DNA from: Escherichia phage vB_EcoS_AHP42
Reading direction: 5' to 3' (one strand)
Sequence record: NC_024793.1
Length of the DNA: 46,847 nt
Numbering within the stretch: position 1 is the stretch's first letter; each line of letters begins with the position of its first letter. Position numbers and translations under genes: made by a program. The notes under the pieces are model-generated. The model had not been told where the DNA came from. It was given only the letters and a program-made list of their open reading frames with translations, and searched no databases. This document shows positions 7,357-46,847 of this stretch, one piece after another.

Positions 7357-8301
7357 ATGACTATTAAGCTAGATGCTTTCGAGCAGAACAAAATCACCGA
7401 ACACCTGCGTAACATGGGTGTTGAAAAAGCTGATGCAGCTGGCATTTGGACCATCAAACAGCTGACTCAGACGCTTAACCGTAACTACGATCGCGAATAT
7501 GCTGAAACGTCTGTAGTTAACCTGTTCCCGGTCACTAACGAAATTGGCGCTTACGCTAAATACTTCGAATACGGCGAAATGGATGGTGTTGGCTTAGCTC
7601 AGATTGTAGCTGATTATTCAGATGATTTGCCGACGGTTGATGCACTGATGCAAGAGAAGCAAGGTAAGGTGTTCCGTTTTGGTAATGCATTCCTGGTTTC
7701 CATCGATGAGATTGCGGCTGGCGCAGCTACTGGTCAATCACTGTCTTCTCGCAAACAGGCTCTTGCATTCGAAGCTCATGACAACCTGCTTGATAAGCTG
7801 GTTTGGAAAGGCTCCGCACCTCACGGCATTAAGTCTGTATTCGATTACGACAACGTAAACCAGGTAGTTCCAAGCGGCGCATGGACTACAGCACAGACTG
7901 CTTACGCTGACGTTAATAGCCTGCTGGATATTATCGAAACAGCAACCCAAGGCATCCATCGAGCTAACAGGCTGCTTCTTCCGGCATCCGCTCGTCGAGT
8001 AATGCAAACTCTGGTCCCGAATACTGGTATTAGCTACTTTGAGTTCTTTGCCCGTAACAACAATGGCGTACAGGTGGAGTTCCTGCAACTCCTTGACAAC
8101 TACGATGGCGCAAACGGCAAGGCTGCAATTGCTTATGAGTACGACCCATTGAACATGAGCATTGAGATTCCAGAAGCTACTCACGTCCTTCCAGCTCAAC
8201 CGAAGGATTTGCACTTCAAGTTTCCTGTAACCTCCAAGTCTACTGGCCTGGTTATCTACCGACCTCTGACCGTTGCAGTAATGAAAGGTATCACCTTCTA
8301 A
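7357..8301 (+). CDS. major capsid protein
   Basis: 314 aa with its own TATAAT-containing upstream region and a strong terminator after it; position is typical of the major capsid gene. Confidence 0.65.
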   Translation: MTIKLDAFEQNKITEHLRNMGVEKADAAGIWTIKQLTQTLNRNYDREYAETSVVNLFPVTNEIGAYAKYFEYGEMDGVGLAQIVADYSDDLPTVDALMQEKQGKVFRFGNAFLVSIDEIAAGAATGQSLSSRKQALAFEAHDNLLDKLVWKGSAPHGIKSVFDYDNVNQVVPSGAWTTAQTAYADVNSLLDIIETATQGIHRANRLLLPASARRVMQTLVPNTGISYFEFFARNNNGVQVEFLQLLDNYDGANGKAAIAYEYDPLNMSIEIPEATHVLPAQPKDLHFKFPVTSKSTGLVIYRPLTVAVMKGITF

Positions 8302-45792: not shown

Positions 45793-45979
45793 ATCACTAG
45801 GGAAAGTCAGATGTGTTGGGTCTTACAATGATAAGAAGTTCAAAACTGGTAAATCTTACAGCATTTTGTCATCACCCGCATATGGTTGGGTTAAATGTGA
45901 GTCAGAAGATGGGTGTATAGAGATGGTTAAAGATGGCAATGACATTGAGTTTGGTTACTTTGAGGTATTTTATGACTGA
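45785..45979 (+). CDS. hypothetical protein
   Basis: ATG at 45785 with upstream GGGGAG overlaps the upstream stop; the track GTG start at 45764 is less likely. Confidence 0.4.
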   Translation: MTKSLGKVRCVGSYNDKKFKTGKSYSILSSPAYGWVKCESEDGCIEMVKDGNDIEFGYFEVFYD

Positions 45980-46265
45980 GCTATCAATCTGGTTCCTGGC
46001 TGGCATGTTGACGTGGATTTATTTCGTCGTCATGGCTTGACGAAAATGTTAAAAGTGGTTAGTATTAACCACGTAGACGGCAATGACCGTAACGCTCATC
46101 GCGGAGATGCAAGCCGATAGCCGGGCTGGATAAAGATACGAGGCAAATAAAACCGCAGTTAGACATTGAGTGCTTAGCATAGCGCACGCCTTAATGCAGT
46201 AAGTCGGACTTGACCTTCCGAGGATTGTGAAACCTCCCCGCATTCGGTAAGCGGGACTCATTCTA

Positions 46266-46341
46266 GTTCTGCTGGCGTAACAGGATAACGCAGAGACCTC
46301 CTAAGTCTCAGTTGCTGGTTCGAGTCCAGCGCAGAACGCCA
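46266..46341 (+). tRNA. tRNA-Arg (anticodon CCT, reads AGG)
   Basis: Hand-folded 76-nt cloverleaf: 7-bp acceptor stem GTTCTGC/GCAGAAC, U8, D-stem GCGT/ACGC with GG in the D-loop, anticodon stem GAGAC/GTCTC, loop CTCCTAA, T-stem GCTGG/CCAGC, T-loop TTCGAGT, discriminator G and encoded CCA. Confidence 0.85.
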
Positions 46342-46354
46342 ATCAACCAGCACC

Positions 46355-46570
46355 ATGTGCATTGAGGTAAATATGAAAATTGTAACCATCATCGTTAAAG
46401 ACACAAATACAGGCAGCATCGCTAAGTACAATATCAAACTTAAAGAAGGTGAAAAGAGAGAGCACCTTGGTTTAATGAATGGTGTTTACACATGCATTAA
46501 TCTTGAACATGACAAATCGCTTGATAAGCATGTATTTGACAAGATGCTAGAGAGCGCAATGGATGAATAA
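46355..46570 (+). CDS. hypothetical protein
   Basis: 71 aa starting 14 nt after the tRNA. Confidence 0.45.
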   Translation: MCIEVNMKIVTIIVKDTNTGSIAKYNIKLKEGEKREHLGLMNGVYTCINLEHDKSLDKHVFDKMLESAMDE

Positions 46571-46748
46571 CTACGAAGTCCGTTTAACTTCCCGCCTAAT
46601 GGGCAGGCAATGCAAATCTTGCCAGCAATCCTACGAAGGTAGGTTTCTTGCTAACGGCCCTGAAGAAGCAGTTGCAGCCGCAAAGGCAGCATTTAAGATT
46701 GACCTGACAGTTCACAAAGTCAGCGTTGATAAAGTATCCCTCGTTTGA
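46563..46748 (+). CDS. hypothetical protein
   Basis: 61 aa overlapping the upstream gene by 8 nt; followed by a strong terminator. Confidence 0.45.
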   Translation: MNNYEVRLTSRLMGRQCKSCQQSYEGRFLANGPEEAVAAAKAAFKIDLTVHKVSVDKVSLV

Positions 46749-46775: not shown

Positions 46776-46800
46776 CGCCCTCCTTGTGAGGGCTTTTTTT
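46776..46800 (+). terminator. rho-independent terminator
   Basis: GCCCTC-CTTGT-GAGGGC followed by seven T. Confidence 0.75.
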
Positions 46801-46847
46801 CGTCCATAGTCATGGTACAATGACTTTTAAAACAGGAGGAATATCAA

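Follow-up and report, generated by a model that had tools for sequence, protein, structure and literature searches.

A structured leader RNA with a 3' pseudoknot module upstream of the tRNA-Arg(CCU) gene of Escherichia phage vB_EcoS_AHP42 and its counterparts in T1-like phages

What is the sequence that lies immediately upstream of the arginine transfer RNA (tRNA) gene of Escherichia phage vB_EcoS_AHP42, and does it depend on that tRNA? This question was addressed in the 46,847-nucleotide (nt) record NC_024793.1, the whole of which is called the window here and whose position 1 is the ATG of TerS. AHP42 is a Rogunavirus of the T1-like family Drexlerviridae, and the Escherichia phages AHP24 and AHS24 (Drexlerviridae, Rogunavirinae, Rogunavirus) are 100% identical to it over the 801 bases surrounding the element. 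A first-pass annotation, made from the letters of the window, had placed about 220 nt of structured noncoding sequence at 46045..46265, and had left a processed leader, a degenerate tRNA and a small RNA as options. The comparisons described below indicate that the sequence is a leader RNA with a structured 3' module, which is also found in phages that carry no tRNA at this locus.

The 3' module of the leader comprises two abutting hairpins, A and B, and a pseudoknot, in which the bases just 5' of hairpin A pair with the C-S-G of the ...CSGUAA loop of hairpin B. Among eight sequences, which represent three types, the 11 pairs were formed in 88 of 88 cells, whereas slid partners paired in 22–42%, and all eight variable columns of the module belonged to four compensated pairs, one of them the pseudoknot pair. 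In 24 distinct sequences from five lineages, all 259 of 259 pair cells were standard pairs and 7 of the 11 pairs showed double changes, although this alignment was fitted to the covariance model and its pairing is somewhat inflated. In the controls on these 24 sequences, slid partners paired in 19–45%, and none of 500 shuffles reached the covariation score. The module is a real RNA structure, as shown by compensatory substitutions in independent lineages, and the description of the upstream sequence as structured and noncoding was thus borne out by covariation.

Several pairs in family members that are G-U on the + strand would read A-C on the opposite one, and the RNA was therefore assigned to the + strand; the neighbouring genes and the promoter all lie on the + strand as well. 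Hairpin B of the window is followed by no U-run, but by ACTCATTCTA and then the tRNA, and it does not have the form of an attenuator or intrinsic-terminator leader. A mini open reading frame (ORF) within the module (GTG AAA CCT CCC CGC ATT CGG TAA) was considered incidental, since every compensatory pair alters its peptide. The resemblance of hairpins A and B to CRISPR repeats or anticodon loops was likewise dismissed, as it is seen in one sequence type and not in the Sd1 or T1 types.

The module is not confined to Rogunavirinae. A pattern scan recovered it in Pantoea phage AAS23 (Sauletekiovirus) and in three metagenomic viral contigs, none of which carries any tRNA. In these four sequences the module is preceded by a promoter of its own (TTGCGC / 17 nt / TAATAT), the 5' domain is unlike that of the window, and the AAS23-type module stops 8 nt short of the ribosome-binding site (RBS) of the homologue of phrog_2919, the second small ORF downstream of the element in the window. 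A covariance model, trained solely on the Rogunavirinae and AAS23 modules and run on 110–156 kb of loci, gave one + strand match per locus, at the syntenic position, in T1 (E 1.7e-6), other Tunavirus, Braunvirinae and Tlsvirus, with E values in these groups ranging from 1e-7 to 6e-3; the match in the window covers 46211-46264. No match was obtained in the Webervirus or Tempevirinae/Hanrivervirus-type loci included in both searches. Overall, the module was confirmed in 38 loci from five lineages.

In T1, the module lies within an unannotated 165-nt gap (7591-7754) before ST57, which is followed by ST56, ST55, an annotated terminator and TerS. The locus is equivalent in T1, Tlsvirus, Braunvirinae and AAS23, where the module precedes the small operon located before the terminase genes. 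The order of elements in the other subfamilies is promoter, CGTAGAC, A(A/C)GAGGC, variable hairpins, the two abutting hairpins, an A-N3-ATTCA tail and the RBS, and the loop of the second hairpin ends in C-S-G-U-A-A. In the tRNA-less relatives, the module ends 8–10 nt before the RBS of the first gene. The distance between the conserved leader blocks varies from about 40 to 190 nt.

The loci of the Tempevirinae/Hanrivervirus type retain the promoter, the start motif and the CCGUAAGAC motif, and carry a long last hairpin, in which 7 of 16 pairs covary, with a U-run after it and directly before the first RBS. A CAACAAC linker precedes this terminal hairpin, which resembles an intrinsic terminator. 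The Webervirus leader is a short version of about 75 nt. The leaders of Webervirus and Tempevirinae may be homologous to the module or merely analogous to it. These comparisons suggest that the leader is a family-wide RNA common to T1-like phages, of which the window would carry the Rogunavirinae version.

A 16-mer scan and scans of viral contigs with the loop alone gave mostly chance matches, and, among the matches listed, the metagenome pattern scan also gave mostly chance matches and one real new variant (L096). Protein-guided locus searches with TerS, or with close homologues alone, returned known isolates only, and a diverse alignment was needed.

Since the same module, together with the promoter and start motif, sits at the same locus in phages without a tRNA, the leader is independent of the tRNA, and the tRNA is a later insertion into an older leader RNA. 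No tRNA follows the leader in T1, Tlsvirus, AAS23, Webervirus or the Tempevirinae type, whereas tRNA-Arg(CCU) directly follows the module in Rogunavirinae and tRNA-Arg(UCU) does so in Braunvirinae-like phages. The Arg tRNAs of this slot are homologous to one another. A homologous tRNA-Arg(UCU) occupies the same site in the Braunvirinae-like loci L199, L230, L258, L259, L265 and L279, and one Rogunavirinae locus (L185:1200-1275) carries the same tRNA scaffold with the anticodon UCU, which one C-to-T substitution accounts for. The pattern resembles anticodon switching between the two rare AGR readers.

Additional tRNAs were observed in the same slot: a Trp(CCA) tRNA before the Arg tRNA in Sd1 (L003:1293-1366), a Val tRNA after it in EB49 (L009:881-957), a 74-nt tRNA with a CGA anticodon before it in three Logan contigs (L183, L184 and L185), and an odd 93-nt tRNA-like call after it at L182:1391-1483. 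The extra tRNAs are inserted after the module and never replace it. The slot after the module behaves as a tRNA insertion hot spot in a strongly promoted, terminated unit.

The positions of the elements of the leader and of its surroundings are listed in the table.

Features of the leader RNA and its surroundings in the window (NC_024793.1)
Feature	Position	Strand	Basis or remark
ORF of 22 aa (amino acids), MTELSIWFLAGMLTWIYFVVMA	45972..46040	+	upstream boundary, outside the RNA element
Sigma-70-type promoter, TTGACG / 17-nt spacer / TAGTAT (predicted)	46037..46065	+	consensus scan
Start-proximal motif CGTAGAC	46072..46078	+	motif comparison
Predicted hairpin H1 (also uses the start motif)	46072-46094	+	RNAalifold
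Rogunavirinae-specific 5' block, ~57 extra nt between CGTAGAC and ACGAGGC	46079..46137	+	comparison with other subfamilies
Predicted hairpin H2	46096-46110	+	RNAalifold
Predicted hairpin H3	46112-46127	+	RNAalifold
Purine motif ACGAGGC (AAGAGGC / AAGAGCG in other subfamilies)	46138..46144	+	motif comparison
Variable region	46147..46214	+	replaced, shortened or partly duplicated among relatives
Hairpin CATTGAG...CTTAATG, in variable region	46164-46196	+	alignment
Semi-conserved AAGTC, in variable region	46201-46205	+	alignment
3' module, two abutting hairpins and pseudoknot, 38 nt	46218..46255	+	covariation, covariance model
Pseudoknot 5' strand CC	46218-46219	+	pairs with GG 46246-46247 in the loop of hairpin B
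Hairpin A: GAGG, loop ATTGTGAAA, CCTC	46220-46236	+	covariation
Hairpin B: CCCGC, loop ATTCGGTAA, GCGGG	46237-46255	+	covariation
Single-stranded tail ACTCATTCTA (consensus A-N3-ATTCA)	46256..46265	+	alignment
tRNA-Arg(CCU), 76 nt, CCA encoded	46266..46341	+	ARAGORN, Rfam RF00005
Small ORF, phrog_16862	46373-46570	+	PHROG match
Small ORF, phrog_2919	46563-46748	+	PHROG match
Intrinsic terminator closing the unit (predicted)	46777..46800	+	sequence scan
Extended -10 promoter TGGTACAAT for TerS (candidate)	46813-46821	+	sequence scan

The anatomy of the window leader was compared against 14 Rogunavirinae variants. A sigma-70-type promoter was called upstream of the leader by a consensus scan. 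Both hexamers are (nearly) invariant in Rogunavirinae, while the spacer varies in sequence and not in its length of 17 nt, as would be expected of a promoter. The start-proximal motif CGTAGAC lies 5–6 nt past the -10 hexamer in Rogunavirinae, T1, Braunvirinae and Webervirus, and variants of it (CGTAAAC, CGTGAAC and CGTTTAC) occupy this position in Tempevirinae. This promoter-plus-start layout was present in 72 of 85 Drexlerviridae loci. From the spacing, transcription is predicted to start at about 46071-46073. On this prediction, the first ~27 bases of the interval in the first-pass annotation (46045-46071) would be promoter spacer and -10 element and not leader. In other subfamilies (Webervirus, L216-L274; Tempevirinae type, L209-L281; T1, L236), a spacer motif, CTGA(C/T/G)(C/T)GG, is present just before the -10 hexamer, which could be a regulator binding site; the promoter spacer of the window lacks it.

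Downstream of the start, the first ~75 nt are 96–99% identical even across genera, a conservation at least equal to that of the tRNA and far above that of the flanking genes. In the other subfamilies, the CGTAGAC and A(A/C)GAGGC motifs are only 2 nt apart, indicating that the 5' block is an insertion in Rogunavirinae. One Logan contig (SRR23593250_207292, locus L184, ~255-310) has a 55-nt insertion exactly in the loop of H1, which could be either a genuine variant or an assembly artefact. In the variable region, the stem at 46164-46196 showed, in L096, the changes G-U to G-C and A-U to G-U, which are compatible with a + strand RNA alone. In the region matching window positions 46195-46225, about 20 nt are duplicated in tandem in Rogue1 (L004), e4/1c (L008) and Jk06 (L012), as GCCGGACCTT(T)CCGAGGATTG; the repeated sequence is the module's 5' half, as far as the first bases of the loop. 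A long-range pairing between the 5' AGAC and AAGUCU was rejected, as L256 and L262 break it without compensation.

The leader did not match any known RNA family. A covariance-model search of Rfam 15 (4227 families) gave no match to the window leader at E<=10, and the leaders of T1, Webervirus, Braunvirinae, Tlsvirus and AAS23 gave none at E<=1. The statement that the sequence contains no second canonical tRNA was confirmed on the + strand by ARAGORN at 80% and by the absence of an RF00005 match at E<=10, and these same results, including no call at the relaxed ARAGORN threshold, disposed of the degenerate-tRNA option. In E. coli genomes the leader had no blastn match at E<=1, a result that excludes long matches only, and an exact-pattern scan of 185,579 bacterial and archaeal genomes gave no match. 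The GC-skew and composition profile showed no origin signal at the leader and was uninformative. No RNA or regulatory annotation covers the leader in the records examined, and nothing relevant was found in the literature on noncoding RNAs, pseudoknots or leaders of Drexlerviridae and T1-like phages, in a search whose reach excluded most subscription-only papers, the T1 genome paper of 2004 among them. By the lack of an Rfam match, of an RNA annotation and of a report in the searchable literature, the leader RNA is new, and in kind it is a structured phage leader or regulatory RNA.

The tRNA itself was as proposed. ARAGORN called tRNA-Arg(cct) at exactly 46266-46341 on the + strand, reading cct at position 35 in a 7-nt loop, which agrees with both the proposed interval and the proposed isotype and anticodon (CCU). 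The RF00005 model scored it at 58.8 bits against a gathering threshold of 29, over model positions 1-71 of 71. U8, G18G19-A20, the GGTTCGAGTCC T-arm, the T-loop GTTCGA, the discriminator G and the encoded CCA were all read from the sequence, in agreement with the proposed invariants. A20 and C35, identity elements for arginyl-tRNA synthetase (ArgRS), are both present in this tRNA. No blastn relative of the tRNA was found in E. coli genomes at E<=10.

The claim that the tRNA suits AGG-rich genes also held: AGG is the commonest Arg codon of the phage (168 of 709 Arg codons, 12.0 per 1000), as counted over 65 roughly defined ORFs that together make up 89% of the genome; the tape-measure ORF has 30 AGG codons and the tail-fibre ORF 23. 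AGG is among the rarest codons of E. coli. tRNA-Arg(CCU) would decode this codon. This tRNA is not new. It has been published and annotated for JK06/Rogue1-like phages, one arginyl-tRNA per genome having been described for a set of phages that includes AHP42 (Niu et al., 2014; PMC4070988), and tRNA-Arg is annotated in the GenBank records of the relatives Rogue1, AHS24, AKS96 and AHP24.

Downstream of the tRNA, the two small ORFs and the terminator complete the unit; units of this layout contain two or three tiny ORFs. Homologues of phrog_2919 occur in ~750 phage records, and lay directly upstream of TerS at every locus inspected. The arrangement of a terminator and a following promoter is also present in T1, Webervirus, Tlsvirus, Tempevirinae and Hanrivervirus. 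The -10 or extended -10 element before TerS reads TGGTACAAT, TGGTAAAAT or TGTTATAAT (window; T1, L283:1323-1396; L197, L200, L201 and L202), and no clear -35 element was visible at this promoter in the subfamilies inspected. This element is likely to be a conserved late or packaging promoter.

At the other boundary, the protein of the 22-codon hydrophobic ORF is kept with synonymous changes in 12 Rogunavirinae relatives, and the ORF ends in a stop codon that shares bases with the -35 hexamer of the leader promoter. Its match to Pfam DUF6341 is weak and below the cut-off (E 0.0015), and the ORF is without annotation in most records. The motif VDHINRDPSDDRISNL, which is of the HNH type, occurs in a 175-aa ORF (550-1077, +) situated between TerS and TerL; this ORF probably encodes a homing endonuclease that was inserted between these two terminase genes.

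How might the leader act? A host-type promoter would start a short, self-contained unit that ends at the terminator before the terminase genes. The first ~190 nt of the transcript would fold into the start motif (CGUAGAC ... ACGAGGC), the three-hairpin block, the variable hairpin and the 3' module. The tRNA was inserted between the module and the first ORF, where it would exploit the strong promoter, and RNase P cleavage at 46265/46266 would free the leader, which would then be about 190 nt long and have a structured, pseudoknotted 3' end. The leader would set the attenuation, translation or stability of the operon, possibly through a hypothetical factor bound via the invariant loops. We consider it somewhat better than an even chance that the leader acts in cis to regulate the small pre-terminase operon, because it holds a constant position in the 5' untranslated region (UTR), 8–10 nt from the first RBS where there is no tRNA, and because it combines invariant loops and covarying stems with a terminator-type variant in one lineage. 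The first-pass option of a processed leader or small RNA pointed in the right direction, but was too narrow, as the RNA has a predicted promoter of its own and is kept in tRNA-less phages.

Several observations weigh against this cis-regulatory reading or the structure on which it draws. The 5' block shows no covariation, its sole paired change being A-U to G-U, because almost no positions vary; its fold is a prediction. The folding energy of the whole leader is no better than that of shuffled sequences (+ strand z = -0.07); the GC-rich hairpins that the first-pass annotation reported do exist, but there is no evidence from stability, and the case for structure rests on covariation. The inflation of pairing in the 24-sequence alignment belongs here too. 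In addition, the tRNA of Rogunavirinae and Braunvirinae, probably through an RNase P cut, parts the module from the ORFs, and yet selection on the module persists. This sits poorly with a translational operator that works purely next to the RBS, and a released RNA fits it as well or better.

Such a released RNA would be a free, trans-acting small RNA (sRNA), with a target in the host or in the phage, on which it would act, for example, as a protein decoy or sponge or by base pairing via its invariant unpaired stretches. The agent of release would differ between lineages: RNase P where a tRNA is present, the terminator in the Tempevirinae type and, perhaps, RNase E cutting at the AUU tail in the remainder. 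The leader's own promoter, the invariance of its sequence even in predicted single strands, a structured 3' end 10 nt ahead of the RNase P site and the persistence of the module where the tRNA parts it from the ORFs all accord with this, and the Tempevirinae-type hairpin and U-run, after the CAACAAC linker, resemble a stand-alone sRNA gene. However, the module of T1, Tlsvirus and AAS23 runs into the RBS with no terminator or known processing site after it, and no intragenomic antisense target of the leader of at least 12 nt was found within the phage. We regard a trans-acting sRNA as possible but rather unlikely.

An antiterminator like put of phage HK022 would use the nascent two-hairpin RNA to drive read-through of 46777-46800 into the terminase and late genes. 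The two abutting hairpins soon after the promoter and the strong terminator directly before the late genes are in keeping with such a role. Read-through would nevertheless be unneeded, as a separate (extended) -10 promoter lies between the terminator and TerS in every lineage examined; moreover, the Tempevirinae-type leader itself ends in a terminator, excision of the tRNA would cut the RNA off the polymerase, and the stems are merely 4–5 bp, whereas those of HK022 put are longer. This makes antitermination improbable. Nor is a role at the DNA level, as a pac site, a replication origin or an operator for a phage regulator, any less improbable: the element does lie just upstream of TerS, and the start motif and the conserved spacer motif CTGAnnGG of the other subfamilies could bind a protein, but the compensatory changes preserve pairing, several G-U pairs form on the + strand only, the spacing of the conserved blocks varies over the wide range given above, and the composition profile shows no origin signal here. 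The annotated terminal repeat of T1 (record 1-2800), and hence presumably its packaging end, is also ~7.6 kb from the leader.

That the sequence is an ordinary, functionless pre-tRNA 5' leader or a decayed second tRNA is suggested by its place directly before the tRNA and by the extra tRNAs that relatives hold here (Trp in Sd1, the CGA-anticodon tRNA in L183-185). This is very improbable, given that the leader is present and conserved in phages without any tRNA, that its 5' block is conserved at least as well as the tRNA, that the extra tRNAs sit after the module and not in its place, and that no tRNA-like call appeared at relaxed thresholds. A small protein is hardly credible. The first-pass statement that there is no ORF holds only loosely, in that mechanical ORFs of 70 aa (46049-46261, -) and 35 aa (46013-46120, +) exist, but neither belongs to a Pfam or PHROG family; the resemblance of the + strand ORF INHVDGNDRNAH to HNH, too, came with no match in either. 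The minus strand is nearly stop-free in all variants because the + strand is purine-rich, and its open frame shifts register between phages, with indels of 1, 4, 5, 11 and 33 nt that are mostly not multiples of three. Substitutions follow the RNA pairing and not codon position, and all neighbouring genes are on the + strand. The 'hypothetical protein' annotations that some relatives carry over the RNA (OPT79_81, L010:590-763; Rogue1_0013, L004:1318-1440) are probably spurious.

As a phage-encoded tRNA (RF00005), the tRNA of the window is identical in kind to others and matches a codon that the phage uses heavily; the leader before it, on the other hand, carries no RNA annotation, although a few relatives place 'hypothetical protein' ORFs there. 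T4 species 1 and 2 (rnaC/rnaD) are small stable RNAs co-transcribed with tRNAs, and E. coli 3'ETS-leuZ is a tRNA-precursor spacer that acts as an sRNA sponge. By description, the leader is like these in being a structured, non-tRNA RNA from a tRNA precursor that would be freed by tRNA-processing nucleases; unlike them, it also exists without a tRNA, as the 5' UTR of protein genes.

Regulatory mRNA leaders (attenuators, ribosomal-protein leaders and riboswitches) share with it the promoter-proximal position, covarying stems and invariant loops, as well as alternative expression platforms, which would be RBS-adjacent in T1 and AAS23 and terminator-forming in Tempevirinae. The 5' pseudoknot operator of T4 gene 32 is likewise just upstream of an RBS. 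In contrast to known regulatory leaders, the window leader matches none of the Rfam families and has a tRNA between it and the ORFs. The leader shares with HK022 put two adjacent stem-loops soon after a promoter, in a phage without a known protein antiterminator. The likeness to put is one of layout only, and the leader differs in its much shorter stems, its pseudoknot and the separate promoter for the downstream late genes.

A more far-reaching proposal, which we put forward tentatively and consider unlikely to hold in full, is that the leader represents a new class of phage regulatory RNA in many T1-like phages, in which the ...CSGUAA pseudoknot senses a protein or small molecule, the RNA acts in timing or as a released decoy, and the 57-nt block is an added domain. 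If this were true, sensing by the leader would time the pre-terminase operon in the manner of a riboswitch or protein operator with interchangeable expression platforms, or else the leader, once released, would act as a decoy directed at a host factor or defence system.

The leader RNA spans several T1-like lineages, including the classic phage T1 and phages used in biocontrol and therapy, and merits an entry in Rfam. The transcription unit that it marks, beside the packaging genes, is small and insulated. It also marks a site of repeated tRNA insertion and swapping. If it is regulatory or directed against the host, the leader would open a tractable system in a very simple phage.

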